Assembly: GCA_039918615.1 (NCBI GenBank) | Contig: JBDSHG010000024.1 | Span: forward strand, 7,795-71,794 | Direction of reading: 5' to 3' | Source of the DNA: Gemmatimonadaceae bacterium | Lineage (GTDB): Bacteria; Gemmatimonadota; Gemmatimonadetes; Gemmatimonadales; Gemmatimonadaceae | Length of the DNA stretch: 64,000 nucleotides | Shown here: one piece after another, positions 6,700 through 48,776 of the stretch | Position numbering within the stretch: the stretch's first letter is position 1 | Layout: every line of letters starts with the position of its first letter | Made by a program: the position numbers and the translations under genes | The notes under the pieces: generated by a model | The model's database searches: none | Seen by the model: the letters and a program-made list of their open reading frames with translations, nothing else | What the model was told of the DNA's origin: nothing

Positions 6700-6817
6700 G
6701 CATCCCGTGCAAGAGAAGTGAATCGACGAAGCACCACGGAAGAGTCATGCCCCGCTCGGCCGCCGCGCCCTGCGAATAACTTGCGGCCCAGTCCGTATGA
6801 CCGTAGTCTAGAGCACA

Positions 6818-7081: not shown

Positions 7082-7103
7082 CGCACCTCCCGGAGCTCAC
7101 GAC

Positions 7104-15734: not shown

Positions 15735-15754
15735 TATTGCACTGTGTCCGTCGG

Positions 15755-17212: not shown

Positions 17213-17305
17213 CGATCGTAAGATTGCGGATCCGCGCGCCCCGCGCGAGTGCGACAATCCGTTCCCCAATTCGAACTGAACGAACTTTCTCTCGGAGTGT
17301 CCGAT

Positions 17306-19485: not shown

Positions 19486-19569
19486 GCACACCGGCTGACC
19501 GTCGCAAATTCGGCGCGGCCAGTCTACATATTTCAGCATCGACGGGCTGACACCCACACCGAGCAGTCA

Positions 19570-20766: not shown

Positions 20767-21671
20767 GCATTCTGATCGACGAAAAGACCCGGATTCTCTT
20801 CCAGGGATTCACGGGCGACAAGTCGACCTTCCACGCGAAGGAAGCGATCGAGTACGGCACGAAGATCGTCGGCGGTGTCACTCCCGGAAAAGGCGGTGGT
20901 AAGCATCTGGGACTTCCCGTGTTCGATACAATGAAGGAAGCAGTGGCGGAGACTGGAGCGACGGCGAGCGGCATCTTCGTCCCGGCGCCGTTCTGCGCCG
21001 ACGCGATCATGGAAGCCGCAGACGCCGGTATTCAGCTCATCGTCTGCATCACCGACGGCATCCCGGCTCAGGATATGATGCGCGTCAAGCGCTACATGCT
21101 TCGCTACTCGCGCGAGCGGAAGCCCACGCTGATCGGTCCGAATTGCGCCGGCGTCATCTCGCCGGGCAAAGCGATGATCGGCATCATGCCCGGCAGCATC
21201 TACACGCAGGGGCGAGTCGGCATTGTGTCTCGCTCCGGCACGCTCGGCTACGAGGCCGCGGCGCAGATGCAGGCGCTCGGCATCGGGGTGAGCACGAGCG
21301 TCGGCATCGGCGGCGATCCGATCAACGGAAGCTCGTTCGTCGACATGCTGCAGCGCTTCGAAGCCGATGACGAAACCGACGCTGTGATGATGATCGGCGA
21401 AATCGGCGGCCCGCAGGAGGCCGAGGCATCGCTGTGGGCGCGCGACAACATGTCGAAGCCGATCGTCGGCTACGTCGCCGGGCTTTCGGCGCCGCGCGGA
21501 CGCCGCATGGGGCACGCCGGCGCGATCATTTCCGCATTCGGCGACAGCGCGCTCGAGAAGGCGGAGATCATGCGCAACTCGGGACTCACTGTTGCGTCGA
21601 GTCCCGCCGAGCTCGGATCGGCGATGAAGCAGGCGCTTTCGAAGCCTGCTCGTCGCGTGGTGCTTGCCTGA
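20763..21671 (+). CDS. mtkB: malate-CoA ligase alpha subunit
   Basis: GTG at 20763 overlaps the mtkA stop (GTGA). [49 protein letters not shown], and the phosphohistidine loop MGHAGAII. Confidence 0.8.
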
Positions 21672-21672
21672 T

Positions 21673-22644
21673 ATGACGAAGCCCAGGGTCGTCATCACGC
21701 GGAAGATCCCGGCTGCGGCCGAGGCGCGCGCGAAGCAACTGTTCGACGTCGTGTTGAATTCGGATGACAAGCCGCTCGACGCCGCGGCGCTGGCCAGGGT
21801 GATGCGTGAGGCGGACGGGCTGCTGCCGTGCGTCGCCGACAAGATCACCGCCGATCTGCTCGCGACACCCGGGCGCACGGTGAAGATCGTGTCGAACTAT
21901 GGAGTCGGCTACAACAACATCGATGTCGTGGGGGCGAAGGAGAACGGCGTCGTGGTCACGAACACGCCGGATGTGCTCACCGAAGACACGGCTGACCTCG
22001 CGCTCACGCTGATGCTGGCGACGGCGCGGCGCGCCGGTGAGGGCGAGCGCGAGGTGCGCGGCGGCAAGTGGACTGGCTGGCGTCCGATGCACATGCTCGC
22101 GACGCAGGTGCACGGGAAGACGCTCGGCCTCATCGGCATCGGGCGCATCGGACGCGCGGTGGCGAAGCGCGCGCATCTCGGATTTGGGATGAAGATCATC
22201 TACCACGATCCGTATCCGCTCAGCGATGCCGACACGAAGGTGCTGAACGCCGAGCGGAAGGCGAGCATCGAGGCGGTGCTGAGTGAGAGCGACTTCGTGT
22301 CGCTGCACTGCCCGGCGACCCCCGAGACGAGGCATCTGATGAATGCCGGGCGGTTCGGCCAGATGAAGAAGGGGTCGATCCTCATCAACACGGCACGTGG
22401 CGACGTCGTGAACGAGGCCGATCTGATCGAGGCGCTCAACGCGGGAACGATTGCGGGTGCGGGGCTCGATGTCTTCGAGAGGGAGCCATCCGTGCCGGCG
22501 GCGTTGATCGCGATGGAAAACGTGGTGCTGCTTCCGCACCTGGGGAGCGCGACGCTGGAGGCGCGCACCGCGATGGGGATGCGCGCGATCGACAATCTCG
22601 AGGCCTTCTTCGGGGGCACGGCGCCGCGCGACCGCGTCGCCTGA
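21673..22644 (+). CDS. hprA: hydroxypyruvate/glyoxylate reductase (D-2-hydroxyacid dehydrogenase)
   Basis: ATG sits 1 nt after the mtkB stop. GKTLGLIGIGRIGRAVAKRA (NAD fold), INTARGDVVNEADL, AGLDVFEREP, LPHLGSAT. Confidence 0.8.
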   Translation: MTKPRVVITRKIPAAAEARAKQLFDVVLNSDDKPLDAAALARVMREADGLLPCVADKITADLLATPGRTVKIVSNYGVGYNNIDVVGAKENGVVVTNTPDVLTEDTADLALTLMLATARRAGEGEREVRGGKWTGWRPMHMLATQVHGKTLGLIGIGRIGRAVAKRAHLGFGMKIIYHDPYPLSDADTKVLNAERKASIEAVLSESDFVSLHCPATPETRHLMNAGRFGQMKKGSILINTARGDVVNEADLIEALNAGTIAGAGLDVFEREPSVPAALIAMENVVLLPHLGSATLEARTAMGMRAIDNLEAFFGGTAPRDRVA

Positions 22645-22649
22645 CCGCA

Positions 22650-25382
22650 GTGGCAACTCGCGCGCACTTCCGCGCACCGCCGGCGGTTCCGATTGGAGCA
22701 ACCGCGATGGAGCTTCCGACGCCCGAGTCGGGGGCGGAGCGACTGCTCGTCGAGATGTTGCGGCAGGTCGTGATGCTGCGAGCGCCGGAGTCGGCGGCGG
22801 TGCTCGAAGGCGGGAAGATAGATGGTAACAGTTCCGGTGAGTCGATCGCGCGCTCGCTGCAAACCGTCGGGCTCCTCTCTCAGATTCTCCCGATCGCCGA
22901 GCTGCACGACGCAATGGATGCGCGGCAGCGCGTGGAGCGCGAGCGCGGCTTCGAGTCCCTCACGGGAACGTTCGCGAAGGTGATCGCCGAGTGGAAAGCG
23001 CTCGGCGTGCCGGCGGATACGGTGCGCGAACTCCTGCGCACCTTCCGCGTGATCCCGACGATCACCGCCCATCCGACCGAGGCGAAGCGCGTCACGGTGC
23101 TCGAAAAGCTGCGCACGATCTACGCGCTGCTGCTCAAGCTCGATGGTCCGCTGGTCACGTCGCGCGAGCGCGCGCTCTTCGGCGAGGAGCTTCGCACGGA
23201 GCTCGATCTCCTCTGGATGACCGGTGAGCTCAAGCTCGAGAAGCCGACGGTCGCGCAGGAGGTGGCGTGGGCGCTCCACTTCTTCGACACCACACTGTTC
23301 GGCCTCGTCTGGCTGCTCCACGATTCGCTGGCGCGCGCGCTGGCCGAGTCGTATCCCGGCGAGCATTTCGATCTCCCCAACTTCGTGCAGTTCGGCTCGT
23401 GGGTAGGAGGCGACCGCGACGGAAATCCGAATGTCACGAACGAGGTGACGCGAGCGGCGCTCAAGGAGTATCGCTCCAAGTGTCTCCATCGATATCAGCG
23501 ACGCGTGGCAGAGCTGTCACGTGAGCTGAGCATCTCGGAGCGGTCGACGAAGTTCACCGACGAATTCAAGCAGGCGCTCGCGCGCGCGCTCGAGGCGAGC
23601 AACGATGGCGAGCGTCTCGCGGCGCGCAATCCCGGAGAGCTCTGCCGGCAATGGCTGAGCGTCGTGCAGCGGCGGCTCGCGGCGACCGTGGACGAGAGTC
23701 AGCGTAAGCGCGGTGGCGAGGGGCTGACAGCGCCGCCGTATGCGACCGCTGACGATCTCGTCGCCGATCTCAAGACGCTCGAGCGCGCGCTCATCGATGC
23801 GGAGTGCGGCGCGATCGCGCGCGCGACGGTGGTGCCCGTCCGGCGCGAGGTCGAAGCGTTTCGCTTTTCCACGGTACGACTCGATGTGCGCCAGGGCTCG
23901 GGCGCATTCAACTCGGCAGTCGAGGAGCTTCGCCAGGCGCGCGGCGCGACGGAGGGCGCGTCGTGGGTCCGCGATGCGCTCACGCGTCCGATGCGCGAGG
24001 GCGAGGCGGGCGTCACGTCGGAGGGGGCGAAGGAGACCTGCGCGATGTTCACGCTCGTGCGCGAGCTGCGGAAGAGCATCGACCGGCGCGCCTTCGGGAG
24101 CCTGATCATCAGCAACACGCAGAGCGCGGCGGATGTGCTCAACGTGTATCTGCTCGCGAAGGAGGGCGGGCTCTTCCACGATGCCGCCGGCGTCGAGAGC
24201 TGCACGCTGCCCATCGTGCCGCTCTTCGAGACCATCGAGGATCTTCGCCGCGCGCCGGCGATCATGCGCGAGCTCTTCAGCGTGCCGGTGGTGAAGCGCA
24301 GCGTGCGCGCCCAGGGTGGCGTGCAGGAAGTGATGATCGGCTATTCGGACTCGAACAAGGATGGCGGCTTTCTCACGTCGAACTGGGAGCTGTACCAGGC
24401 GCAGAAGAGGCTCGCGCGCACGGCGCAGGAGTGCGGCGTCGAGCTTTCGTTCTTCCACGGTCGCGGCGGATCGGTGAGCCGGGGCGGCGCACCGACGCAT
24501 CGCGCGATCGCCGCGCAGCCGCCCGGCACGATCCGCGGGCGGATGCGGACGACGGAGCAGGGCGAGGTCGTCTCGTTCAAATTCGGCTACCGGAACGCGG
24601 CGTTCTATCAGCTCGAGCTCCTGGCATCGAGCGTTTTGGAATACTCGCTGCCGAGCGATGAGGCGGTGCCCGTGCCGGGGCTTGGGGAGGCGATGGAAGC
24701 GTTGAGCGGCGCGGCGTTCGCGGCCTATCGCGGCCTCATTCAGCATCCGGGGCTCATTGAGTACTACACGGCGGCGACGCCGCTCGAGGAGTTGCAGCTG
24801 CTCAACATCGGCTCGCGTCCGGCGCGCCGCGGAGGGACACGATCGCTGAGCGACCTGCGTGCGATCCCGTGGGTGTTCGCGTGGACGCAGAACCGGCACC
24901 TCGTGCCGGGGTGGTACGGAGTGGGAAGCGCGCTCAACTCCTTCCTCAGTGTGCGCGGCGAGCGCGGCGAGGCGATGCTGCGACGGATGTTCGCCGAGAC
25001 GCCGATCTTCCGCCTCATCATCGACGAGGTGGAGAAGACGCTGGCGCAGGTCGATCTCTCGCTCGTGCGCGCGTACGCGAGTCTGGTGCCCAACAAGCTC
25101 GCGCGCGCGGAGGTGCTCGCGCTGATCGAGGCGGAATACGAGCGCACGGTGACGGCGGTGCTGCATCTCACGGGTGAGGAGGCGCTGGCCGAGCGCTTCC
25201 CGCAATTCCGTAGGCGCATGACGCGGCGGCTGGGGATGCTGGAGCGCGCGCACTATCAGCAGATCGAGCTGCTGCGTCGCGTGCGGGGGAAGCAAACCGA
25301 GGGTGCGGAGCGCGAGGACGATCTTGCGGCGCTGCTCTTGTCGATCAATTGTATCGCGGCGGGATTTGGGACTACGGGCTGA
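22650..25382 (+). CDS. ppc: phosphoenolpyruvate carboxylase
   Basis: IPTITAHPTEAKR, VMIGYSDSNKDGGFLTSNWELYQAQ, FFHGRGGSVSRGGAP, IPWVFAWTQNRHLVPGWYG, C-terminal IAAGFGTTG. Start is GTG 22650 or ATG 22707. Confidence 0.95.
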   Translation: MATRAHFRAPPAVPIGATAMELPTPESGAERLLVEMLRQVVMLRAPESAAVLEGGKIDGNSSGESIARSLQTVGLLSQILPIAELHDAMDARQRVERERGFESLTGTFAKVIAEWKALGVPADTVRELLRTFRVIPTITAHPTEAKRVTVLEKLRTIYALLLKLDGPLVTSRERALFGEELRTELDLLWMTGELKLEKPTVAQEVAWALHFFDTTLFGLVWLLHDSLARALAESYPGEHFDLPNFVQFGSWVGGDRDGNPNVTNEVTRAALKEYRSKCLHRYQRRVAELSRELSISERSTKFTDEFKQALARALEASNDGERLAARNPGELCRQWLSVVQRRLAATVDESQRKRGGEGLTAPPYATADDLVADLKTLERALIDAECGAIARATVVPVRREVEAFRFSTVRLDVRQGSGAFNSAVEELRQARGATEGASWVRDALTRPMREGEAGVTSEGAKETCAMFTLVRELRKSIDRRAFGSLIISNTQSAADVLNVYLLAKEGGLFHDAAGVESCTLPIVPLFETIEDLRRAPAIMRELFSVPVVKRSVRAQGGVQEVMIGYSDSNKDGGFLTSNWELYQAQKRLARTAQECGVELSFFHGRGGSVSRGGAPTHRAIAAQPPGTIRGRMRTTEQGEVVSFKFGYRNAAFYQLELLASSVLEYSLPSDEAVPVPGLGEAMEALSGAAFAAYRGLIQHPGLIEYYTAATPLEELQLLNIGSRPARRGGTRSLSDLRAIPWVFAWTQNRHLVPGWYGVGSALNSFLSVRGERGEAMLRRMFAETPIFRLIIDEVEKTLAQVDLSLVRAYASLVPNKLARAEVLALIEAEYERTVTAVLHLTGEEALAERFPQFRRRMTRRLGMLERAHYQQIELLRRVRGKQTEGAEREDDLAALLLSINCIAAGFGTTG

Positions 25383-28722: not shown

Positions 28723-28821
28723 TTGGAATCGCGTCGACATTCATCTCAGCTGATCTCCGCAAATCGTCGCGATTGTCGGAGATCATTTCGTCTGGTCGTT
28801 GGTCTCGCCTGTAAAGCTTCC

Positions 28822-29811
28822 ATGTCACTGAAGCTCATCGCGCTGCTAGCGACCGCGGCGATGCCACAGGCTCTCGCCGCCCAAGCCGTGCCTGGCGTAG
28901 CGGTCCAGGGCGAGAATGATGGACTCGACCTCTGGCTTCCAAAGATCAAGCGTCCGGATGGCGAGTACACCAACGGTCTCCGCGTTTCCATGACACGTAG
29001 CGTTGCGCCGCTGTGGGGCCGCTTCGTACACGATGCGACACCATGTAATGGAAGTGAGGTTGCCTCCCAGCGCTGCCTCACGACCGAGTTTGCTATCGCG
29101 CAGCAGATGTACACACCGTTCAACGCTGAGAACAACCCGCGACCGATCGATCGTCCATTCGCGGGATGGCTGCATGCGGATGTCACGGCTGACGTGGTCT
29201 CGACCTCTCGGCTTCGCTCCCTCAAACTCACTGCTGGTTTTACGGGCCGCGCCACACTCGCCGAAGACGTACAGAAAGCATTTCATCGGGCCGTCGGCAT
29301 ATCGACCGCCGACGGATGGCAGTATCAACTCGGCTTTCGTCCCGCCGCCAGCCTCACTTACGTCGAAAAAATTCGCGCGGTGCTTGCTACGCTGCGAGGG
29401 CGCGCAATCATCGACGCTCAACCATCGTGGAGCGTGCAGGGCGGCAACTCGCGCACGGACGCGTACGCAGAGATGACGGCTCGTCTCGGCTATCATCTCT
29501 CGCATCCGTGGAACCTCGCCTCTCGTGTGCGAGAGGGCGCGCACTCATTCGGTATCTGGATTTATGGCGGTGTTCGCGGGACCTTCGTCGCGTATGACCA
29601 GACGCTCGACCGAAGCTGGAGCAGGCATGATACCACTTACTCCGTCCAGCGAGTTCCATGGGTCGGGAGCTATCAATTTGGCGTCACCGCTCGACGCCAC
29701 TCCCTGACAGTCAGCTTCGGTGGTGTGCGCGACGAAAGGGAGTACAAGACGGAATTCGCCCCACATTCCTACGGCTCTCTCACCGTCACCGTAGATCGCC
29801 TCCTTCACTGA
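28822..29811 (+). CDS. LpxR-family (DUF2219) lipid A 3'-O-deacylase-like outer-membrane protein
   Basis: ATG 28822 within ORF 28723..29811. Signal peptide MSLKLIALLATAAMPQALAAQ, then GENDGLDLW...DGEYTNGLRVS and AIAQQMYTP, motifs I associate with LpxR/DUF2219. Confidence 0.65.
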   Translation: MSLKLIALLATAAMPQALAAQAVPGVAVQGENDGLDLWLPKIKRPDGEYTNGLRVSMTRSVAPLWGRFVHDATPCNGSEVASQRCLTTEFAIAQQMYTPFNAENNPRPIDRPFAGWLHADVTADVVSTSRLRSLKLTAGFTGRATLAEDVQKAFHRAVGISTADGWQYQLGFRPAASLTYVEKIRAVLATLRGRAIIDAQPSWSVQGGNSRTDAYAEMTARLGYHLSHPWNLASRVREGAHSFGIWIYGGVRGTFVAYDQTLDRSWSRHDTTYSVQRVPWVGSYQFGVTARRHSLTVSFGGVRDEREYKTEFAPHSYGSLTVTVDRLLH

Positions 29812-31918: not shown

Positions 31919-32451
31919 TGTGGGGCTCCGGGGCGGGTATCCCGCAAGATGAAAGCGTGGGAGGGGGGAGGCAACAGTCCTTTCGGGCAGGTGGCGCTTG
32001 ATTTGGCTACGACGATCTGCGAAGCAAACGCCGCGAAGCGGTTTGCGACTGAGTCGAGCGTGTATACGCGCTTCGGAAGCTCCGCGTCGCGAATGTGGCG
32101 CGGCGCGGATCGTCGGAACGCGCGAATCGAGTCAACCGCATTCCGGGGGTCGTTGGCTACAACGTGCGCTCGAGCCTCGCCCCGGACAAACTCTACGAGC
32201 GATACCAGCGATACGCCGATAAAGGGAGTTAGCTCGACCTGAGAGCACTCAGCATCGATCAGCATTGTTTTGTTGCAATGGAGAGCTTCGAGGATAGCGG
32301 TGTGGCCATGCTCGGTGAGGCGGTGCGCGTCGAGTGCGACGGAGCATCTCTGCGCGAAGTCATGCGAGATTGGCTCGCGTCGGTGTATCGTGAGGAGGGC
32401 ACCAAAGTGACTCGGAAATCGTGGCGCCTATTCTCATACTATGTGATCGAG

Positions 32452-33444
32452 ATGGTGCACGTTCTTACGGTACGGTCTCGCACCCTGTGGACGTCGGCTG
32501 CGATAATCATTGCTGTCGGCGCCGCTGGCGCCTGTGGGTCGCGAGATGCGAACGGACCCATCGGCCTCACCTCAATCGTCGTCACGCCGAACCCCCAAAT
32601 CTTCGGCGTGGGTGGAACAGGCCCTTTCACCGCGACGGGGAGCAACGACCTCGGCGCCCCGGTGGCTCTTACGGCCGTCTGGTCCGTCAATCACGGCGGC
32701 GGGACGATCAATGCGTCTACGGGGATGTTCACCGCCGGACCCGATACCGGCACTTTCACCAATACGGTAAAGGCGGCGAGCGGCGCAGTCTTCGGCGAGG
32801 CGACAGTCATCGTCACGGACGACGCCACCCTTCTCGTGCCCGGACCGTTGAGGAGCGCGTCCGCGAATGGGATCATGGCGGGACAGTCATTCACCTGCGT
32901 AACCGGAGGAACGATCAACGCGAACATCGCCATCAGTCCGGGAAGCACGGTGACCGGATTTCCGCCGTGCGTCATCACTGGTGTGCAGCACCTCGCCGAT
33001 GCGATTGCGCTCGCATCGCAGAACGATCTCACGGCCGCCTACGATTCGCTGATGGGGCTCCCGTGTCCGGGCGCGAATGTCATCACCACGGACCTCGGAG
33101 CGACGACGAAGGCCGCGGGCGTCTACTGCTCCTCGTCTGGCATCGGCGTCACGGGAACGCTCACGTTGGATGCAGGAAACGATACATCGGCGACGTTCGT
33201 GTTCCAGGCGCAGAGCACCTTGATCACCGCCGGGAACGTCGTGCTGATCAACGGTGCCAAGGCCCACAACGTGTATTGGGTCGTGGGATCGTCGGCGACG
33301 CTCGGTACCAGCTCGCAGTGGCAGGGAAACGTCATTGCCCTCACGAGCATTACGTTGGTGGACAATGCGAATCTGACCGGCCGCGCACTCGCTCGAAACG
33401 GCTCGGTCTCGCTCGGAAACAACAACACGATCACGCTGCCATAG
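32452..33444 (+). CDS. ice-binding-like (DUF3494) protein with N-terminal Big_2-like Ig domain, probable lipoprotein
   Basis: ATG 32452. MVHVLTVRSRTLWTSAAIIIAVGAAGACGS. Ig-like LTSIVVTPNPQIFGVGGTGPFTATG. DUF3494 core DLTAAYDSL...DLGATTKAAGVYCSSSGIGVTGTLTLDAGNDTSATFVFQAQSTLITAGNVVLINGAKAHNVYWVVGSSATLGTSSQWQGNVIALTSITLVDNANLTGRALARNGSVSLGNNNTITLP. Confidence 0.75.
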   Translation: MVHVLTVRSRTLWTSAAIIIAVGAAGACGSRDANGPIGLTSIVVTPNPQIFGVGGTGPFTATGSNDLGAPVALTAVWSVNHGGGTINASTGMFTAGPDTGTFTNTVKAASGAVFGEATVIVTDDATLLVPGPLRSASANGIMAGQSFTCVTGGTINANIAISPGSTVTGFPPCVITGVQHLADAIALASQNDLTAAYDSLMGLPCPGANVITTDLGATTKAAGVYCSSSGIGVTGTLTLDAGNDTSATFVFQAQSTLITAGNVVLINGAKAHNVYWVVGSSATLGTSSQWQGNVIALTSITLVDNANLTGRALARNGSVSLGNNNTITLP

Positions 33445-33473: not shown

Positions 33474-34691
33474 TCAGTATCGGAAGGCGACCTTAATGCT
33501 CTCGCCGTCGGCCTTGTTCGACGCGGTTGCGAGCGCCTTGCGGTAGTCGCCGAGCGCGAAGGTGTGTGTGAGCAGCGGCGCGAGCGGCGCCGCTCCGCTC
33601 GCGATCAGCGAGGCCGCCGTCGCGAACGCCCCCTGCGCCGCGCTCGCGTGCACCGGGCTCCCGTAGCACAGCGAGCCGCGCACGGTGAGCTCCTTGAGCC
33701 AGAGCGGCGTCCAATCGAGACCATTCATCGTGCTCGAGTTCCCCAGCAGCACGATCGTCCCCCCCGCGCGCGTGACGCGCATCGCGTCGTCCATCCCCCG
33801 CGCGCCGCCGATACACACGAACGTCCGGTCGAAGCCGCCGACGCCAACCATCTTCCCGATGATCGGCTTGAGCAACCGCGTGCCACCCGCATCCGCGAGC
33901 GCCTTCGTATAATCGCCGCGCGCCGGAACGATTTCGGTGGCGCCGAGCCGCGTCGCGTGCGCGCGCTGCGCATCGTAGCGCGCGAGCGCCGTGATGCGCG
34001 CCGTCGGCGCCAGCGCCCGCAGCGCAGCGATCGTGAGTAGCCCGATCGACCCCGCGCCGATTACCAGCACCCGCTCTCCAGCCCCGGGGAGATTCGCGCG
34101 CACGGCATGAACCGAGCACGCGAACGGCTCGATCAGCACCGCGCTCTCATCGCTCACGCCTTCCGGGATCGTCACGAGCTGCCCTTCGTGCGCGACGAAC
34201 TCCTCCCCCCAGCTCCCGCCGAGCCCGCGTGTCGTGCCGATCAGCATCCCCGGCGCGATCGCGCCGTCGGTGAAGTGCGCGCACCTCGAGTGATGCCCGC
34301 TCTCGCAGGGCACGCATCGCGGCGCGATCCCGCGCGGCTCGCAGCAGAGCAGGGGATTCGCCGTCACGCGCGCGCCGACCTTCACCGTCGTCACCCCGTC
34401 TCCCACCGCCACCACCTCGCCGACGTTCTCGTGGCCGAGCACGAACGGAAACGACGAGAATGGCGACGTCGACGGGCTCGCACCCAGCGAGACGACGTTG
34501 AGATCGCTCCCGCAGATGCCGCCGAGCCGCGTGCGAATGCGCACCCACCGCTCGTTTGGCAGCGATGGCTGCTCGATGTCCGTGTACGACGTGCACGCGA
34601 GCGCGCCGGTGTAGAAGCGGCGGGAGAGCCTTCCAGCAGCGAGCGTGGCGAGGTACGTCGGGATCGGCGCCGCGAAGCGGATCGCCTTCAC
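33474..34691 (-). CDS. zinc-dependent alcohol dehydrogenase (MDR family)
   Basis: GTG 34691 overlaps the upstream stop (GTGA); only the last 405 codons of ORF 33474..35414 are real. GGICGSDL, GHENVGEV, structural-Zn Cys cluster CCEPRGIAPRCVPCESGHHSRC, VIGAGSIGL NAD loop. Confidence 0.85.
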   Translation of the reverse strand: MKAIRFAAPIPTYLATLAAGRLSRRFYTGALACTSYTDIEQPSLPNERWVRIRTRLGGICGSDLNVVSLGASPSTSPFSSFPFVLGHENVGEVVAVGDGVTTVKVGARVTANPLLCCEPRGIAPRCVPCESGHHSRCAHFTDGAIAPGMLIGTTRGLGGSWGEEFVAHEGQLVTIPEGVSDESAVLIEPFACSVHAVRANLPGAGERVLVIGAGSIGLLTIAALRALAPTARITALARYDAQRAHATRLGATEIVPARGDYTKALADAGGTRLLKPIIGKMVGVGGFDRTFVCIGGARGMDDAMRVTRAGGTIVLLGNSSTMNGLDWTPLWLKELTVRGSLCYGSPVHASAAQGAFATAASLIASGAAPLAPLLTHTFALGDYRKALATASNKADGESIKVAFRY

Positions 34692-35602
34692 GCCCTGGTG
34701 CTCACGGATGTCGCCGGCGTCGCGACGCGCAGCGCGGCGGGGATGCAGGAGATCTCTATCGTCGACGACTTCGCCGTGTTGTACTCGCCGTCCGTCTCGT
34801 ACGCCGGCGGCGCATCGAACTTCAGCGTGAACACGCACGCCTGCTCCGACAGTACCAGCGGATTGCGTACGTGCTTCCCGCTCGGCGCCGCCGCCAGCAT
34901 CGCGATACGCGTGAACGGAGACGCATCGAGGATCGAGATCGCGTCGAGCTTCCCGTCGTTGATGCGGGCGTCCGGAGCGATCTCGAACATTCCGCCGAAG
35001 TTGCGGCCGTTGGCGATTATGAGCATGAGGTGCGCCCGTGGCCCGCGCGCGACTGCGGCCGTGGCGATGTCGATCGGCATTCCGCTGAACTTGAAGAGCT
35101 GCCGGAGCGCGGCCGTGAGATAGAGCAGGTCGCCGGTGATGAGCGGGATGTTCTCGAGGTCGTCGAGCACCGCGATGTCGAAGCCGAAGCCCGCGACGTT
35201 GAGGAAGTAGCGATCCTCGATGCGCCCGACATCGCAGCGCATGTCGGGGCCCTCGACGGCGAGCTTCGCGGTGGCGGCGAGATCGCGCGCGGGTGCGCCG
35301 ACGGTCTTCGCGAAGTCGTTCCCCGTCCCAGTCGCGAGGAGCGCGAGTCGGCAGTCCGACCCCGAGGAGAGGATTGCGTTGGCGGCATTGCTCCACGTCC
35401 CGTCGCCGCCGCATGCGACGATCGTGGTCGCGCCGTCGTGCAGCGCGAGCGCCGCGAGCCGCTTCTCGTCGCCCGGGCGCTGGGTGAGCCGGATGTCGGT
35501 GACGCCAACGCTTGCGAAGGTCTTACGGATGTCGGGGAGTAAACGCGAACCCCGCCCCCTTCCGGAGGCGGGGTTCACGATCACCGTGACGCGGTCGGTC
35601 AT
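34688..35602 (-). CDS. diacylglycerol/ceramide-kinase-family lipid kinase (YegS/BmrU-like)
   Basis: ATG 35602 overlaps the upstream stop (ATGA). VTVIVNPASGRGRG, IVACGGDGTWSNAANA, LLATGTGNDFAKT, FLNVAGFGFDIAV, ETDGE. Confidence 0.85.
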   Translation of the reverse strand: MTDRVTVIVNPASGRGRGSRLLPDIRKTFASVGVTDIRLTQRPGDEKRLAALALHDGATTIVACGGDGTWSNAANAILSSGSDCRLALLATGTGNDFAKTVGAPARDLAATAKLAVEGPDMRCDVGRIEDRYFLNVAGFGFDIAVLDDLENIPLITGDLLYLTAALRQLFKFSGMPIDIATAAVARGPRAHLMLIIANGRNFGGMFEIAPDARINDGKLDAISILDASPFTRIAMLAAAPSGKHVRNPLVLSEQACVFTLKFDAPPAYETDGEYNTAKSSTIEISCIPAALRVATPATSVSTRA

Positions 35603-36291
35603 CGACGCGCGTAGGAGGCCAGCGTCTGCAGCGGATGGAAAGTCTGCAGCCCGTTCTTCATCCACAGCTCGCGGAAGGGTGTGAAGTCCACGTCCCAGTC
35701 CTCGACCAATCCCGTCATCGCCTGCGAGTGGATGGTGATGCCACCGCGCTCCTCTTCGTTCTCGGAGAACTGGCCGTTCATCATGATTGTGGATGTGTAC
35801 GCCCCATCCTCGTCGTTCATGAACGCCTGGTAGCGGTGATCGACGTTCGACCACTCGTGCTCCGTCACGCGCATGTCGACGATCGGCTCGCCGCGGTCCG
35901 TCGCGTGGATCGTGATGTGGCCATCGCCGCGCTCCCACGTCAGCGAGATGTCCTGCATGTAGTGTGGAAGGTGCCAGCGCTCGATCGCGTGCTCGCGCGA
36001 CTCGCGCGTCGTCGTCGCGAGGCGGAACGGATAGAAGGCCGAGCGCGGCATCGGGACGCCCGGCTCGACGCGCGGCGACACGAGGATCGAGAGAATCAGC
36101 TCGCCGTAGTCGCCTACCGGACTGTCGTGGAAGTCGAACGCCATCACCGAGAGCACGCTCGAGCCGTGGTGCGGCTCGATCGGCTGCAGCTCGGGAGGCA
36201 GGATCGCACGCGCGTTCTCCGTGGGGAACTCGAAGAAACCGCCGATCGCATCACGAAAGTGGTACTGCACCATGTCGTCAGTTTTGCTCAT
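35599..36291 (-). CDS. hypothetical protein, possibly acetoacetate-decarboxylase-like fold (weak)
   Basis: ATG 36291 overlaps the upstream stop (ATGA). The segment VMAFDFHDSPVGDYGELILSILV resembles the 'dY.dSpvGpY.E' motif I associate with ADC/DUF2071-type proteins. Nothing else recognised. Confidence 0.6.
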   Translation of the reverse strand: MSKTDDMVQYHFRDAIGGFFEFPTENARAILPPELQPIEPHHGSSVLSVMAFDFHDSPVGDYGELILSILVSPRVEPGVPMPRSAFYPFRLATTTRESREHAIERWHLPHYMQDISLTWERGDGHITIHATDRGEPIVDMRVTEHEWSNVDHRYQAFMNDEDGAYTSTIMMNGQFSENEEERGGITIHSQAMTGLVEDWDVDFTPFRELWMKNGLQTFHPLQTLASYARR

Positions 36292-37565
36292 ACAAGTATT
36301 CCCTCATCACGAAGTACGCGGGCGATGATGGTCACGCCCTCGTCGAGCTGTTCGATGGTGTGCGATGACGACACCGAGACGCGGAAGCGCGACCGGTGCT
36401 TGGCGACCGCGGGATAGATGATCGGCTGCAGGTAGATCCCCGCCGTGAGCAGCTTGTGGCCGAGCTCGAAGATGCGGCGGTCGTTGCGGACCATGATCGG
36501 AATGATCTGCGACGTGGAGTCGCCGACGTCGACGCCCTCTTCCTCCAGTCGTGCGCGCATGTGCGCGACATTCGACCACAGCTTGGTGCGCAGTTCCGGC
36601 TCGTTCGTCGCGAGCTCGAGCGATTTGAGTACGCCCGCCGCGACCACCGGCGAGAGTGCGCAGGAGAACACGCGTGATCGCGCGAACCCCTTCAGATAGT
36701 TGTACAGATTCTGCGACCCACCGACGTAGCCACCCTGTCCGCCGAGCGCCTTGGAGAAGGTGCCGATGTGGACGTCGACCTCATCCTCGAGGCCGAACTG
36801 CTCGGCCACGCCGCGCCCGTTCGCACCGTACACGAACGCCGAATGCGCTTCGTCGAGCAGGATCCGCGCGCCGTACTTCTTCGCGACGGCGACGAGCTCC
36901 GGCAGCGGGCACACGTCGCCGTCCATCGAGTAGACGCCTTCGATAGCGACGAGCTTCTTCCCCGTCGTCTGCTTGAGCTTCTTCTCGAGGTCCTCCGGAT
37001 TGTTGTGGCGGAAGAAGCGCACGTTCGCCTTCGAGAGAATCGCTCCGTCGACGATGCTCGCATGCGCGTTCTGGTCGGCGATGACCCAGTCGCCCGGCCG
37101 CATGAGCGCCGAGATCATCCCGACGTTCGTGCTGTAGCCGGTGGGGAACACCATCACCGCTTCCTTCTTCTTGAACTTCGCGAGCGCTTCCTCGAGCTGG
37201 CAGTGCACATCCATCGTGCCGCTCAAAATCGGAGAGCCAGCCGCGCCGAGTCCGTACTGGTCGAGCGCTTTCTTCCCCGCCTCGATCACTTCACGGCGAT
37301 AGGACAGGCCGAGATAGTTGTAGGAGGATAGATTGACGAGCTTGACGTGGTTGCGATGCAGCCCTTCGGTCAGGTCGACGGTGCCGCTCGGCGGCGTCGA
37401 CATGGCCTGCGCGAAGAGGTAGTACCCCTCCGGAACGGCCTGATTATACCACTCGTTGTAAGGCTCGAGAATCGAAAACGGGTCGTCGCTCGACGAGTAG
37501 AAAAAGCTGCTGTAATCGTAGTCCAGTGGATTCATGCTCGTCCGCGCTTCGACTCGTGTTGCCAT
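36288..37565 (-). CDS. alpha-oxoamine synthase, serine-palmitoyltransferase-like (PLP)
   Basis: Start ATG 37565 or 37535. VNLSSYNYLGLS, AAGSPILSGT, DEAHS, PLP-lysine motif GTFSKALGGQGGY, IIYPAV. Unusual roughly 60-aa N-terminal extension (NPLDYDYSSFFYSSSDDPF). Confidence 0.85.
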   Translation of the reverse strand: MATRVEARTSMNPLDYDYSSFFYSSSDDPFSILEPYNEWYNQAVPEGYYLFAQAMSTPPSGTVDLTEGLHRNHVKLVNLSSYNYLGLSYRREVIEAGKKALDQYGLGAAGSPILSGTMDVHCQLEEALAKFKKKEAVMVFPTGYSTNVGMISALMRPGDWVIADQNAHASIVDGAILSKANVRFFRHNNPEDLEKKLKQTTGKKLVAIEGVYSMDGDVCPLPELVAVAKKYGARILLDEAHSAFVYGANGRGVAEQFGLEDEVDVHIGTFSKALGGQGGYVGGSQNLYNYLKGFARSRVFSCALSPVVAAGVLKSLELATNEPELRTKLWSNVAHMRARLEEEGVDVGDSTSQIIPIMVRNDRRIFELGHKLLTAGIYLQPIIYPAVAKHRSRFRVSVSSSHTIEQLDEGVTIIARVLRDEGILV

Positions 37566-37578
37566 TGGTGACCTCCAC

Positions 37579-38451
37579 ATGAATGCCGACAGCTCATCGC
37601 CGTCCACCTCTCGCGCTCACAGCGCGACTCGCGTCACTGGACTCACGCGTACGCTGCGTAGCGGCATGTTTTTCGTCGTATACTCTATTTTCACACTTAC
37701 AATATTCGATCTCGGCCAGCGGCTCGTGATCTGGCCTGCGGTTCTACTATTTCCCGTCAAACGACGGGCCGTCGTACGCAGCTGGCTTCGCTTCCTCGCA
37801 AAGGGATCGCTCTGGATCTCCCGCGTCTTCGGCGGCGTTCGTGTGACAGTGCAAGGTACGGCCCCTACCGAGAGCTGCCTTCTGGTGATGAACCACCAGT
37901 CGCTGCTCGACATCACGATCTCGGTCAATGCGGCGGAAGGGCCGCAAGCGGTCATTCCAACGCGTGAAAGATACGGCCATGGCATCCCTGGCATATCCTC
38001 CCTGACAAAACTCGGCGGCTTCCCCCTGGTGACGCAACAGGCGAGGGCCACAAAGGCTGAGGTCGCTGCGTTGCTGCAGGCTGCGAAGGATCTCGAAAAC
38101 GGGGAAACGACGCTCATCATCTACCCCGAAGGACATCGAACGACCGACGGCAATATCCAGCCCTTCATGCGCAGCGGACTAAAGCTGTTGCTCTCTCGAG
38201 CGAACCGACCGATTTACTACATCGTCTCCGACGGTCTCTGGCACGCACGAACGATCAAGGAGACGGTGCACTCGTTCGCGAACAGCACGGTCGACGTGGT
38301 GATACGTGGTCCCTTTCCGCCACCCGCGAGGGAAGACATCGACAGCTTCATCGATGAGCTCCACGCGCGCATGACTGCTTCACTCGCCGAGATTCGCCAT
38401 CGCTCGCCGCCGCCGTTGCGTGAAGCGCAGGAGACGTCGAGCGTTGGTTGA
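37579..38451 (+). CDS. PlsC/LPLAT-family acyltransferase
   Basis: Start ATG 37579 (alternative 37666). TM segment MFFVVYSIFTLTIF, HX4D motif MNHQSLLD, and IIYPEGHRT motif. Confidence 0.8.
   Translation: MNADSSSPSTSRAHSATRVTGLTRTLRSGMFFVVYSIFTLTIFDLGQRLVIWPAVLLFPVKRRAVVRSWLRFLAKGSLWISRVFGGVRVTVQGTAPTESCLLVMNHQSLLDITISVNAAEGPQAVIPTRERYGHGIPGISSLTKLGGFPLVTQQARATKAEVAALLQAAKDLENGETTLIIYPEGHRTTDGNIQPFMRSGLKLLLSRANRPIYYIVSDGLWHARTIKETVHSFANSTVDVVIRGPFPPPAREDIDSFIDELHARMTASLAEIRHRSPPPLREAQETSSVG
37611..37627. promoter_or_regulatory. inverted repeat in the divergent control region of the lipid locus
   Basis: TCGCGCT-cac-AGCGCGA perfect 7-bp inverted repeat. A GCGTACGC palindrome lies about 20 nt downstream. 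It is only intergenic if the flanking genes use their internal ATGs (37535 and 37666). Confidence 0.25.
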
Positions 38452-39430
38452 TCCCGTGCTTCGTGCCGATCTCGCGGCGGGGCTCGACAACGTGCCCGGC
38501 CCCGATGCCACCATGCTTGCGGCGACGCTCGCCCGCTCGTTCGGCGAAGGGACCGTCGGGATCATCCACTACGGCTCTCACGCCCAGCACTCGGATGCGC
38601 GCCGCGAAAGTGCGTTCGACTTCTTCGTCATCGTCGATCGGTATCGCGCGGCATACGAATCGCTCGCCCAAACGATGGGCACCAGCTACTCGCCGCGCAC
38701 CGCGGCCACCCTCAATCGAATTCTGCCGCCAAATGTCATTGCGGTGACCGACAGCGCTCACGTGCCGCCGCTCGCCGCCAAGTGTGCCGTGCTGTCGCTG
38801 AGGGATCTGCGTCGCGAGTGCGGGTTGGCTGCTCGCGATCACTTCGTTCGAGGACGACTCTTTCAATACGTGCAGCTGGTCTGGACTCGCGACTCGAGCG
38901 CGCGAACCGCCGTGACCGACGCCATCATCGACGCCCGCGTCGGTTCGTTCGCGTGGGGACTCGCCTCGCTTCCGCCAACATTCGACGCGGAACAGTATTT
39001 CCGGGCGCTTCTCGAGCGGTCGTTCTCGGGAGAGATTCGCCCCGAGCGCGGTGGCCGGATCGACGCCCTGCTCGGTGCGCAACGCGAGATCGTGCTTCGC
39101 GTGTATGATGCTTTGCTTCAACAACTTGCACGTGAAAGAATACTCGCGAAAGCGGGGAATGTCTACAGTCTGACGAACCCCGTTCGCGCGCTGCGGTCGA
39201 TGGCCATCGACTGGTATTTTCGGCGGAGCAAGGCGCGCGCGACGACGCGGTGGGCGAAGTACGTCGTGCTCTACGATGACTGGCTGGACTACGTGGTGCG
39301 GAAGGTCGCGCGCAGAAGTGGCGTGACGATCGAGCTGACCGCGCGCGAACGTCGATGGCCGCTCATCTTTCTCTGGCCCAAAGCCATCCGGTATCTTCGT
39401 TCCCGTCCTCAACGCCGTTCCGATCAATAA
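38420..39430 (+). CDS. Tam41/Mmp37-like nucleotidyltransferase (putative CDP-lipid synthase)
   Basis: Start GTG 38420, TTG 38444 or GTG 38456. GIIHYGSHAQ...FDFFVIVD, AAKCAVLSLRDL...DHFVRGRLFQYVQLV, FDAEQYFRALLERSFSGEIRPERGG. These parallel my recollection of yeast Tam41 (GYGS...DiIFGV, VKYGVVS...FYLAGRLQKPV, FDEfQFY...SYaGDIR..lGGE). Confidence 0.6.
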   Translation: MKRRRRRALVDPVLRADLAAGLDNVPGPDATMLAATLARSFGEGTVGIIHYGSHAQHSDARRESAFDFFVIVDRYRAAYESLAQTMGTSYSPRTAATLNRILPPNVIAVTDSAHVPPLAAKCAVLSLRDLRRECGLAARDHFVRGRLFQYVQLVWTRDSSARTAVTDAIIDARVGSFAWGLASLPPTFDAEQYFRALLERSFSGEIRPERGGRIDALLGAQREIVLRVYDALLQQLARERILAKAGNVYSLTNPVRALRSMAIDWYFRRSKARATTRWAKYVVLYDDWLDYVVRKVARRSGVTIELTARERRWPLIFLWPKAIRYLRSRPQRRSDQ

Positions 39431-40212
39431 TGTCGACGACAACGTGGGTCGCGCTCGGCCTGATGGCGCTCGCGATCCTGACCATGCCCATCTACGCCGT
39501 GATGACGCGCAGCCGCGCGGTCGACGCGGACGTCGCGCGCAGACCGACGACGATCATTCTCGGCACGTGGGTGCGCGACTGGCTCATGTGGATGATCGGG
39601 CCGGTCGAGCGGAAGTTCGTCGAATGGAAATTGTCGCCGGATCTTTTCAACTACATCGGCGGCGCATTCGGATTGTTCGCCGGCATTGCGTACGCGCAGA
39701 ACGAGCTCGCCCTCGGTGGCTGGCTGATTCTCATCGGTGGGCTCGCCGACATCTTCGACGGGCGCATTGCTCGCGCGCGCGGGATCGGCTCGAACTACGG
39801 CGAGTTCCTGGACTCGATGCTGGATCGATTCGCCGAGATGTTCGCCTTCCTCGGGATCGCGCTCTACTTCGAGCCGACGTGGTGGGCGATGTCCGCGACG
39901 GTGCTCGCGAGCGGCGGCTCGATGATGGTGTCGTACGCGCGCGCGAAGGGCGAAGCGGTGGGCGTCGACTGCCGCGGCGGGATCATGCAGCGCGCCGAGC
40001 GGCTGGTCACGCTCGCGGTTGCATCGCTCATCGACACGCCAATCACGACGGCGCTGGGCTGGATTCCCGGAGTAATTCTGCTAAGTGCGGTGACGCTGAT
40101 CGGACTCGGATCGCTGGGCACGGCGGTATATCGGACGGTCTACATCTGCAGGGCGCTGCGGAAGATGGAGGTCGAGGCGGCGGCGAAGGTGGCGGCGAGT
40201 CCTGCGGTGTAG
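39430..40212 (+). CDS. CDP-alcohol phosphatidyltransferase family protein (headgroup unknown)
   Basis: ATG overlaps the previous TAA (TAATG). Signature D-G-x2-A-R-x8-G-x3-D-x3-D seen as ADIFDGRIARARGIGSNYGEFLDSMLDRFAE. Multi-TM. Confidence 0.85.
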   Translation: MSTTTWVALGLMALAILTMPIYAVMTRSRAVDADVARRPTTIILGTWVRDWLMWMIGPVERKFVEWKLSPDLFNYIGGAFGLFAGIAYAQNELALGGWLILIGGLADIFDGRIARARGIGSNYGEFLDSMLDRFAEMFAFLGIALYFEPTWWAMSATVLASGGSMMVSYARAKGEAVGVDCRGGIMQRAERLVTLAVASLIDTPITTALGWIPGVILLSAVTLIGLGSLGTAVYRTVYICRALRKMEVEAAAKVAASPAV

Positions 40213-47566: not shown

Positions 47567-48676
47567 CTACCGGTCGACCGTCGCCTGCTCCGCTGGCCGC
47601 GTCGTCTGGCTGCGAGTGGCGATCGATTCGACCGTGATCGCCTCGGTCGGACAGTGCCCGACGAACTCGCCGTCGGCGGGCGACCATTCATGCTCCGGAA
47701 TAGCCGCGAACGCCTTGTGCTCGGAATCCATCTTCATGATCCGCGGCGCGAGCGCCGTGCACACGCCGCAGCCGATGCACTTCTCGCGATTCACCGACAC
47801 CCGGATGCGTCGCCGCGGGTAGATCAGATTCCGCACGAGCGGCCCGTCCTCCAACTCGTCCAGCGCCGAAATCGTCCCGTCATACCCCGCCTGGATCATC
47901 TCCTCGGCGTGCGAGAAGCCGAACCAGTCGCGATGCCCGACGCGCGGACGGATCAGCAGCATCGGAGGCCCCATCCACGTGGCGAGGGGGTTGAGTTGCA
48001 ACGCGTGCATCATCACGGAGGCCGCGCGCATGTAGATCGCGGCGAAGCCACGGCTCGAGACGTCCTGAGCGCGTCCGAGATCCGTGTTGCCGACGTCGAC
48101 CGCGATCACCGCGTCGACGCCGAGCGATGCGATGGCGGTTGGGAGATTGTCGATGGTGCCGCCATCGACGCAGACGCGGCCGCCGACGACCGCCGGCGGG
48201 AAGAAACCGGGGAGCGCGCACGATGCGTACACTGCGTCACGAATCGACACGTCGTTGAGCCCCGGCAACCCCCAGACGACGATCGTCCCGCGCTCGAGAT
48301 CAACGGTGTTGACGAGCAACCTGCTCCCGAGCTCGCGGAAGCTGTGGTGCGGAACGACGGAGTCGACGAGATCGCGCAGCGGCTGCTCGAGGTAGAGCGA
48401 CGGCGCGCGCGAGCGGTCCATGAGCATCCCGACGCGATTCAGCCGGAAGAGATCGCGCTTCGATACGGAGATCGCGCGACGCCCCATCTCGTCGAGCGGA
48501 ATGCCGCCGATGCGCGCGGCCGCGATCAGGGCGCCGATGCTCGTCCCCGCGTAGCGCACCGGCACTATCCTGCGCTCCTCGAGCGCGCGCATGACGCCGA
48601 TGTGCGCAAAACCCTTCAGCCCTCCACCACCGAGGACCAGGGCCGTTCGATGCGGAGCGAGCCACGACACCGTCAC
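47567..48676 (-). CDS. patatin-like phospholipase fused to a C-terminal 4Fe-4S ferredoxin-type domain
   Basis: LVLGGGGLKGFAHIGV (oxyanion loop), YAGTSIGALIA (GxSxG), CVDGGTIDNLP (Asp of dyad). C-terminus (about 47567-47790): VNREKCIGCGVCTALAP...GHCPTEAITV (CxxCxxC...CP). Confidence 0.8.
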   Translation of the reverse strand: MTVSWLAPHRTALVLGGGGLKGFAHIGVMRALEERRIVPVRYAGTSIGALIAAARIGGIPLDEMGRRAISVSKRDLFRLNRVGMLMDRSRAPSLYLEQPLRDLVDSVVPHHSFRELGSRLLVNTVDLERGTIVVWGLPGLNDVSIRDAVYASCALPGFFPPAVVGGRVCVDGGTIDNLPTAIASLGVDAVIAVDVGNTDLGRAQDVSSRGFAAIYMRAASVMMHALQLNPLATWMGPPMLLIRPRVGHRDWFGFSHAEEMIQAGYDGTISALDELEDGPLVRNLIYPRRRIRVSVNREKCIGCGVCTALAPRIMKMDSEHKAFAAIPEHEWSPADGEFVGHCPTEAITVESIATRSQTTRPAEQATVDR

Positions 48677-48776
48677 ACGCTTCCTCCTGTTCCCGAAAGC
48701 TCAGCCCACGTGCCTCGAGAGGCGCGTGGGCTGAGCTGAGTATCGTCGGAGCGAGTCGGCCGGTGCCGCCGGACGG

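Follow-up and report, generated by a model that had tools for sequence, protein, structure and literature searches.

Which lipid is made by a locus that couples a synthase resembling serine palmitoyltransferase (SPT) to enzymes resembling those of the CDP-diacylglycerol pathway? This question is raised by seven genes on a 64,000 nt stretch of a Gemmatimonadaceae genome (contig JBDSHG010000024.1), referred to as the window in the following. The seven open reading frames (ORFs) are organised in two divergent operons and fill positions 33474-40212 of the window, which has a GC content of ~65%. The locus spans 6.7 kb, and every ORF was found where a first-pass annotation of this DNA had placed it. 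Judged by the enzymes it encodes, the module probably makes some amino-acid-derived two-chain phospholipid. We give an even chance to the more specific reading that this is a sphingolipid-type phospholipid with two chains, made through a CDP-activated sphingoid lipid.

Layout and conservation of the locus

The minus strand encodes, in order of transcription, a pyridoxal phosphate (PLP)-dependent, seemingly SPT-like alpha-oxoamine synthase (AOS, 36288-37535), a 230 aa protein with the beta-cone fold of acetoacetate decarboxylase (ADC, 35599-36291), a soluble lipid kinase of the diacylglycerol (DAG) kinase family (304 aa, 34688-35602) and a Zn-dependent medium-chain dehydrogenase of the polyol/threonine dehydrogenase type (ADH, 405 aa, 33474-34691). 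The plus strand encodes a PlsC/LPLAT-type acyltransferase (ACT, 37534-38451), a putative nucleotidyltransferase of the Tam41/Mmp37 family (NT, 336 aa, 38420-39430) and a CDP-alcohol phosphotransferase (CDPOH, 260 aa, 39430-40212). The latter is predicted to belong to the type of phosphatidylinositol phosphate synthases (PIPS) and archaetidylinositol phosphate synthases (AIPS).

The minus-strand genes overlap by 4 nt at each junction (ATGA, ATGA and GTGA, the last being shared by the ADH start and the kinase stop), exactly as annotated before. The overlaps claimed for the plus strand were likewise confirmed. They amount to 32 nt between ACT and NT, provided that NT starts at the GTG at 38420, and to 1 nt between NT and CDPOH (TAATG). 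The CDPOH start at 39430 is also found in the public gene call, which moreover gives an identical start for the dehydrogenase. Within the palindrome CATG (37533-37536), the start codon of AOS (37535, minus strand) lies back to back with the first ATG of ACT (37534, plus strand), so that the operons indeed diverge from one point. No intergenic space for a promoter is left if these starts are used; alternative starts lead to a gap of ~43 nt or to an overlap. The AOS reading frame extends to 37607 and the start chosen here rests on the conserved N-terminus, while 37534 and 37579 are both candidate starts for ACT. Four of the seven proteins are identical to NCBI proteins from a metagenome-assembled genome (MAG) in the range MEO6208881-887, which are encoded on a 76.6 kb contig and carry generic names only. 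The module is real and non-random, and it lacks an annotation at the level of a pathway.

To describe its distribution, one genome per species was scanned, which yielded 147 relatives of the Tam41-like gene. The best 80 loci were examined for gene content by tblastn with the seven proteins, and 53 of them comprise enough upstream sequence to be evaluated. All seven genes are present in the same order and on the same strands in 46 of these 53 loci. Complete loci are found in Gemmatimonadaceae (including a MAG of Gemmatimonas aurantiaca), Longimicrobiaceae, Candidatus Eisenbacteria and one genome of the Vicinamibacterales. Flanking genes are not conserved between those lineages among the 80 loci; the only widely shared one is a downstream aconitase-like ORF (44 of 80). 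Since the genes outside the seven differ between lineages, the module is discrete. The co-conservation of the locus, which the first-pass annotation had proposed to check, is thus strong, and the seven-gene arrangement is far beyond chance. One further locus (L043) is interrupted by a contig end. Median identities in the 46 complete loci are 83% for the ADC-fold protein, which is the best conserved of the seven, 80% for AOS, 57% for the Tam41-like protein and 47% for the acyltransferase.

Natural fusions occur within the Tam41-like subfamily. ACT-NT fusions were found in five clusters at 50% identity and an NT-CDPOH fusion in one cluster, and a kinase-NT fusion is possible. Together with the translational coupling at all junctions, these Rosetta-stone fusions support one joint module.

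Enzyme families of the module

The AOS matches the Pfam family Aminotran_1_2 (1.3e-57). In the PDB, three bacterial SPTs score highest (300, 256 and 248 bits), followed by a Thermus BioF/KBL (244 bits), a KBL (228 bits), an ALAS (226 bits), the E. coli KBL (209 bits) and a BioF (180 bits). The score is below the cut-off for both Kbl equivalogs (NF005394 347/460, TIGR01822 291.1/493) and for BioF (TIGR00858 366.1, cut-off 426.45), and identity to Kbl amounts to 34% for E. coli and 40% for Bacillus. A neighbour-joining (NJ) tree was built from 12 sequences including SPT, Kbl and BioF (338 columns). Here the AOSs of the loci form a clade of their own with 100% bootstrap support, outside the known SPT groups, and they group with Kbl in 1.5% of replicates. 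The phylogeny suggested along with the first-pass annotation thus places the AOS neither inside the BioF nor inside the Kbl clade. The motifs HASIVDG, DEAHS and GTFSK align with those of three crystallised SPTs, and SYNYLGL is likewise as in SPTs. According to this motif alignment the catalytic Lys typical of AOSs is present, as are the Asp/His pair and the His that stacks on PLP. By sequence, the AOS appears to be nearest to bacterial SPTs and distinct from Kbl and BioF. Identity as Kbl was considered and ruled out by the curated cut-offs, the identities and the tree. Annotated plasmid references were also tried for classification and were discarded, as their names are too generic.

The dehydrogenase contains the domains ADH_N (2e-21) and ADH_zinc_N (2e-16), which confirms the Zn-ADH of the first-pass annotation. 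Its best NCBIfam match is L-threonine 3-dehydrogenase (NF003808 118.7/380; TIGR00692 110.4/458), both models being below cut-off, and its best PDB matches are xylitol dehydrogenase, ketose reductase and Tdh. With E. coli Tdh it shares 28% identity, and the zinc-site motifs are preserved in this alignment (ICGSD, GHENVGEV and the four-Cys cluster). Given the cut-offs and this identity, the enzyme being Tdh itself was rejected. The combination of an AOS and an MDR Zn-dehydrogenase in one operon resembles the kbl-tdh pair, and so would the proposed conversion between 2-amino-3-keto and 2-amino-3-hydroxy groups. In contrast to kbl-tdh, both proteins are below the Kbl and Tdh cut-offs, are separated by the ADC-fold and the kinase genes and are tied to lipid enzymes.

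Between them lies the gene previously listed as an unknown 230 aa protein. The ORF is there, and the protein can now be assigned to the ADC family by Pfam (PF06314, 33.7 bits, cut-off 29.8) and by fold. Its AlphaFold2 (AF2) model has a pLDDT of 88.8, and each of the top 24 Foldseek matches belongs to the ADC family (E 8e-11, TM 0.52-0.69). Profile and single-sequence searches of the PDB matched nothing. In the family alignment A2 (21 sequences, 63-86% identity) there is neither an invariant Lys nor one with a conservation of 90% or more. Without a conserved lysine the Schiff-base chemistry of ADC, MppR and Sbi00515 is unavailable to this protein. The position of Lys115 in the Clostridium ADC is presumably taken by the invariant His110.

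The kinase matches DAGK_cat (3.1e-28) and YegS_C (3.2e-23), carries the motif ACGGDGTW and passes the subfamily cut-off for YegS/Rv2252/BmrU lipid kinases (TIGR00147, 146 bits, cut-off 118.65), in agreement with the GGDGT lipid kinase annotated before. The more specific equivalogs are not reached (YegS 137/284, DgkB 117/385), and in the PDB, DgkB (97 bits) is matched best, ahead of YegS (78 bits). ACT matches the Pfam family Acyltransferase (PF01553, 8.1e-11, 42.3 bits vs 23). It exhibits an N-terminal hydrophobic segment, the HX4D motif HQSLLD (in NHQSLLD) and EGHR (in YPEGHR), so its designation as an HX4D acyltransferase holds. Its best NCBIfam matches, lyso-ornithine-lipid O-acyltransferase and AGPAT, are far below cut-off (AGPAT TIGR00530 31.1/102.95). 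Overall, Pfam and NCBIfam back six of the seven families, whereas the Tam41-like protein needed evidence from fold and transitive homology.

By direct sequence comparison, the window protein and 19 aligned members reach only E ~0.09 with the Pfam family Tam41_Mmp37 (PF09139), the window protein scoring 12.5 bits vs a threshold of 24, and a profile search of the PDB matched only a minimal nucleotidyltransferase (NTase). The AF2 model (pLDDT 83), however, finds Tam41 structures (6ig4, 6ig2, 7ecd) as its top five PDB matches in Foldseek (E 1e-7 to 3e-6, TMt 0.59-0.67). They cover 277-295 columns with a probability of 1.00; the next match has an E of 5e-3. The family profile A1 retrieves 1068 clusters at 50% identity. 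Among the more distant members found in this way, with E-values of 1e-32 to 1e-82, P0296 (44.8 bits), P0390 (45.0 bits), P0248 (29.0 bits), P0333 (27.1 bits) and P0308 (26.1 bits) pass the Pfam threshold for Tam41_Mmp37. Intermediate sequences and the modelled fold hence argue that NT is homologous to Tam41, and the Tam41/Mmp37-like call of the first-pass annotation is borne out in this way. The NTase motif HYGS...DFFVIVD, of the GS...DxD type, is invariant. The C-terminus is conserved, basic and hydrophobic (ERRWPLIFLWPKAIRYLRSRPQRR), with no transmembrane (TM) segment predicted.

Tam41 is a CDP-DAG synthase in which an NTase domain and a subsequent winged-helix domain jointly form the CTP pocket (PMC7018664). 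Like mitochondrial Tam41/TAMM41 and the Tam41 of Firmicutes (6ig2, 6ig4, 7ecd), NT has the predicted two-domain fold of NTase and winged helix; its basic hydrophobic C-terminus may correspond to the positively charged, amphipathic membrane-binding segment of Tam41. Its identity to these Tam41 proteins is only 12-14%. In contrast to them, NT is encoded in one conserved operon together with an acyltransferase and a CDP-alcohol transferase and is sometimes fused to these. The distant Tam41-like relatives L087-L089 are solitary among unrelated genes; as they stand alone, their context is uninformative on the substrate. In two further clusters of the subfamily (P0263 and P0278) the Tam41-like domain is joined to a cytochrome P450, and in P0318 its fusion partner is a MobA/IspD-like NTP transferase. 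These fusions hint at lipid hydroxylation and a second nucleotidyl transfer in related pathways.

CDPOH matches CDP-OH_P_transf (5.2e-13), and the stretch DIFDGRIARARGIGSNYGEFLDSMLD holds all eight residues of the signature D1xxD2G1xxAR...G2xxxD3xxxD4, so the earlier call of a CDP-alcohol phosphatidyltransferase stands. None of the NCBIfam cut-offs is reached, the highest scores being those for AIPS (NF040950 132.8/180), PIPS (NF045883 104.9/170) and the BT1523-type (101.4/350). Scores are low with PgsA (23 bits), the CDP-inositol-using DIPP synthase (49 bits) and Pss. The best PDB matches are the phosphatidylinositol phosphate (PIP) synthases 5d91, 5d92 and 6h53, and in the alignment residues 48-236 follow RsPIPS (fusion constructs 5d91/5d92) along its transmembrane part. 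The protein consists of the six-TM core with one N-terminal TM helix and has no C-terminal extension. The six-TM form goes with soluble acceptors, while enzymes with lipid acceptors have 3-4 extra TM helices (PMC4634129). In RsPIPS the phosphate of inositol phosphate is bound by R153 and R191 (PMC4634129). According to our own reading of the fusion-construct numbering, the second of these sites is kept in CDPOH (QRAER vs ERSER); at the first, YARAKGE vs YSKARAE, a Lys stands opposite the Arg and an Arg is located two residues upstream. From its sequence, CDPOH is predicted to be of the PIPS/AIPS type, with a lipid-CDP as donor and a soluble acceptor.

These results bear on a route in the manner of the Kennedy pathway. 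In that case NT would activate a soluble alcohol phosphate, either inositol phosphate or the phosphate of a small amino alcohol provided by AOS, the ADC-fold protein, ADH and kinase, and CDPOH would transfer it to a lipid alcohol such as DAG or ceramide. In its favour, a route via CDP-inositol was suggested for Prevotella and Bacteroides vulgatus (PMC9246714), NT has a relative with a second NTP transferase domain (P0318, see above), and a Kbl/ADC/Tdh-like trio could in principle yield aminoacetone and 1-amino-2-propanol. NT, however, has the predicted fold of Tam41, whose only reported activity uses a membrane lipid phosphate (phosphatidate), the kinase passes the lipid-kinase cut-off, the short form of CDPOH is the one for soluble acceptors (PMC4634129), and its score is 133 bits with AIPS vs 49 with DIPP synthase. 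We therefore regard this route as very improbable. Moreover, a lipid kinase would be superfluous if the head group and not the lipid were CDP-activated, which favours the route via a CDP-lipid.

Proposed pathway and alternatives

For this CDP-lipid route, the observed families, folds, operons, conservation and fusions are the basis from which we infer the substrates, the sequence of reactions, the final lipid and any function of the ADC-fold protein. In the first step AOS would join a long-chain acyl thioester and an amino acid, L-serine being the likeliest, in a condensation that gives a 3-keto long-chain base. The Tdh-like Zn-dehydrogenase would reduce the 2-amino-3-keto group, which corresponds to Tdh/Kbl chemistry reversed and on a long chain. 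The DAG-kinase-family kinase would then phosphorylate the C1 hydroxyl, and the PlsC-type enzyme would N-acylate the product with a second chain to a phosphatidate analogue resembling ceramide-1-phosphate. We favour the kinase to act before the acyltransferase, the base-1-phosphate taking the role of lysophosphatidate. With CTP the Tam41-family enzyme would generate the CDP-activated lipid ("CDP-ceramide"), from which the PIPS-like transferase would pass the lipid phosphate to a soluble alcohol that is itself phosphorylated, inositol 1-phosphate being the likeliest. The route would end with a phosphatase encoded outside the module, yielding a lipid similar to inositol-phosphoceramide.

The ACT-NT fusions suggest that the product of the acyltransferase is the substrate of the Tam41-like enzyme. 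The putative order from base via base-1-phosphate and N-acyl-base-1-phosphate to the CDP-lipid parallels the one from lysophosphatidate via phosphatidate to CDP-diacylglycerol. Inositol 1-phosphate is the most likely acceptor because of the similarity to PIPS/AIPS and the basic residues retained at the putative phosphate-binding sites. The last three steps, by kinase, cytidylyltransferase and phosphotransferase, would mirror the lipid-activating CDP-diacylglycerol pathway. The module has no glycerol-phosphate enzyme. Its gene content is exactly sufficient: a chain from AOS, one acyltransferase, a lipid kinase, a lipid-type cytidylyltransferase and a head-group transferase. In this respect the gene set agrees with the chemically complete route put forward in the first-pass annotation. 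That route leaves the ADC-fold protein unused; serine is its predicted substrate, and ceramide-1-phosphate and CDP-ceramide are predicted intermediates.

In known bacterial systems ceramide is synthesised by Spt, a dehydrogenase and an N-acyltransferase, with AcpR/AasR in addition in Rhodobacteria (bioRxiv 10.1101/2024.02.16.580706). A ceramide kinase and CpgA/C then attach phosphoglycerate, and soluble kinases of the DAGK family have been proven to phosphorylate ceramide and dihydrosphingosine in bacteria (PMC10331486). The module resembles the systems of Caulobacter (Spt/AcpR/AasR/bCerS/CerR and CpgB) and Bacteroides/Porphyromonas (Spt and dhSphK1) in that an SPT-like AOS would come first, that keto-reduction and N-acylation are needed and that a soluble DAGK-family kinase would act on a sphingoid lipid (PMC10331486; bioRxiv 10.1101/2024.02.16.580706). 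As in Bacteroidetes, there is no dedicated acyl carrier protein (ACP). In contrast to both systems, the sole reductase and acyltransferase genes of the module encode an MDR Zn-dehydrogenase and a PlsC-type enzyme, and the ADC-fold gene is extra. This agrees with the first-pass annotation, which had stated that these families differ; CerR is SDR-like and bCerS GNAT-like. To our knowledge, sphingolipids receive their head groups by transfer from a glycerophospholipid or a CDP-alcohol, or by build-up on ceramide-1-phosphate. Here, unlike in the known pathways, a Tam41-type cytidylyltransferase and a CDP-alcohol transferase would do so.

The logic and families of the plus operon resemble the actinobacterial sequence PlsC, CdsA/Tam41 and PIP synthase as well as archaeal CDP-archaeol and AIPS (PMC4634129). 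It differs from these routes by a Tam41-type enzyme instead of CdsA or CarS and by a transferase below the cut-offs for PIPS and AIPS. Moreover, it is tied to the operon of AOS, reductase and kinase, which suggests a non-glycerol lipid donor. The proposed inositol-phosphate-headed sphingolipid and the CDP-alcohol phosphotransferase recall Bacteroides BT_1522-1526 and the CDP-inositol proposal for Prevotella (PMC9246714). There, phosphoinositol is transferred from PI-DAG to ceramide by an AUR1-like enzyme in Bacteroides, and in the Prevotella proposal inositol and not the lipid is activated (PMC9246714). In contrast to those clusters the module has no genes for MIPS, a PgpA-like phosphatase, an AUR1-like enzyme or HAD proteins.

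Several points weigh against the CDP-ceramide pathway. The SPT-like nature of the AOS, as annotated before, is retained insofar as the enzyme is closest to SPTs and falls outside Kbl and BioF. It is weakened by scores below every curated SPT cut-off (NF047600 358.1/640, NF047599 348.1/500, NF047603 291.7/670) and by the small NJ tree, where the clade forms the sister group of all SPTs in 54.5% of the replicates. The C-terminal loop of the AOS (YPAVAK) is Kbl-like. The proposed route has no use for the ADC-fold gene, which is better conserved than the other six. Three loci (L048, L050 and L051) do not have the dehydrogenase. In L058 and L075, which belong to one Gemmatimonadota lineage, AOS, ADC and ACT are replaced by a single 518 aa ORF on the minus strand (6034-7590 and 6032-7585, respectively), while ADH, kinase, NT and CDPOH are retained. 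The two copies are 95% identical and were counted as one replacement event; the ORF has no Pfam match and was not found in the other 78 loci or in the window. A further locus (L065, 7334-9751) exhibits NT and CDPOH without the other five genes. PlsC-type enzymes are known as O-acyltransferases and are not known to N-acylate, and the Tam41 enzymes known to us use phosphatidate only. Neither inositol-phosphate synthase nor head-group phosphatase was seen in the module, and neither these nor AUR1-like enzymes, ACP or CdsA are found among the 30 other Pfam-scanned ORFs of the window or the conserved flanks. Finally, a literature search on sphingolipids and polar lipids found no report of a lipid of this kind in Gemmatimonadota.

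Some of these points would fit a glycine-based backbone. The AOS would then act as a long-chain Kbl without decarboxylation and the ADC-fold protein would handle the 2-amino-3-keto acid. The dehydrogenase would form a 1-amino-2-alkanol or a 3-hydroxy-2-amino acid, followed by acylation, phosphorylation of the secondary hydroxyl and CMP activation. This would give the ADC-fold gene, coupled directly downstream of AOS, a function, and it is consistent with the Kbl-like loop, with the identity to Bacillus Kbl and with Tdh, the natural partner of Kbl, as the best curated match of the dehydrogenase. We consider it clearly improbable nonetheless. The mechanism of a Schiff-base decarboxylase is unavailable to a family without a conserved lysine, and the AOS is under both Kbl cut-offs and joins Kbl in hardly any bootstrap replicate. 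Moreover, the characterised DAGK-family lipid kinases known to us act on primary hydroxyls.

The variant with NT and CDPOH alone also fits a division of the locus into two halves. The plus operon would then perform the ordinary conversion of lysophosphatidate to phosphatidate (PA), CDP-DAG and PIP, and the minus operon would be a separate unit for the base or ceramide with a kinase, or the kinase would recycle DAG. An inositol sphingolipid could arise here by head-group transfer from PI, with the enzyme encoded elsewhere as for Bacteroides BT_1522. Each plus-operon enzyme would act on its known substrate (for Tam41 as CDP-DAG synthase see PMC7018664), CDPOH is PIPS-like, and the ACT-NT and NT-CDPOH fusions suit the sequence from PA to PIP equally well. 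In addition, Bacteroides makes PI-dihydroceramide from PI-DAG via an AUR1-like enzyme (PMC9246714), and CpgB phosphorylates DAG in vitro, too (PMC10331486). However, no AUR1/PAP2-like transferase and no inositol-phosphoceramide (IPC) synthase was seen in the conserved module or the Pfam-scanned ORFs of the window, and the module would be left without an N-acyltransferase for the base. A cell which makes PA has little evident need for a dedicated PlsC or lipid kinase. The joint travel of seven genes in an identical divergent layout through four lineages would likewise not be explained. Taken together this division, including the transfer from PI, seems rather unlikely to us.

Compared with these alternatives, the pathway via a CDP-activated sphingoid lipid is plausible and survives the computational tests directed against it; it stays a prediction. 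In its full form it would represent a third, independent ceramide route, with an MDR reductase, a PlsC-type N-acyltransferase and CDP-ceramide or CDP-sphinganine generated by a Tam41 homologue and used by a PIPS-like enzyme, in the lineage of Gemmatimonadota and Eisenbacteria. Every step of the CDP-diacylglycerol pathway would have its counterpart here on a backbone derived from serine. We put this full form forward tentatively, as somewhat less than an even bet. The term CDP-ceramide was not found in the literature searched, in line with the first-pass annotation, to which no such intermediate was known, nor was Tam41 linked there to bacterial sphingolipids. The novelty would thus lie in a new combination of known enzyme families with a predicted new intermediate. 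If true, the pathway would bring in a new liponucleotide and a new way to add phospho-head groups to sphingolipids. It would be the first physiological role for a widespread bacterial branch of Tam41 (>1000 clusters at 50% identity) and would show that enzymes for ceramide synthesis were recruited independently once more. Moreover, it would imply that Gemmatimonadota, one of the commonest soil phyla, have membrane lipids of a class that has so far escaped notice, and would bear on soil lipid biomarkers.

Genes around the module

In L065 the pair of NT and CDPOH directly follows a small membrane protein which is DUF1003-like by eye, and a similar protein is located upstream of the dehydrogenase in L058.

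The window contains a gene set at 13729-25382 that resembles the serine cycle or glyoxylate assimilation. It includes a glycerate kinase (DUF4147/MOFRL, 15755-17515, minus strand), an HpcH/malyl-CoA-lyase-like gene (18319-19485), the beta subunit of an ATP-grasp CoA ligase (19486-20766), a D-2-hydroxyacid dehydrogenase (21628-22644) and a PEP carboxylase (22287-25382). Judged by eye from the translations, glycerate-kinase-like ORFs are also located near the module in L048 and L065, in L048 together with a D-2-hydroxyacid-dehydrogenase-like ORF.

An LpxR-like outer-membrane lipid A deacylase (2.7e-59) is encoded at 28723-29811 in the patch with the lowest GC of the window (0.586 vs ~0.65), and the gene may have been acquired recently. 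The module is adjoined by an ice-binding-like protein (DUF3494, 32278-33444), which is not kept with it in other lineages. The gene at 47567-48700 encodes a fusion of a patatin-like phospholipase domain with a 4Fe-4S ferredoxin domain at the C-terminus.

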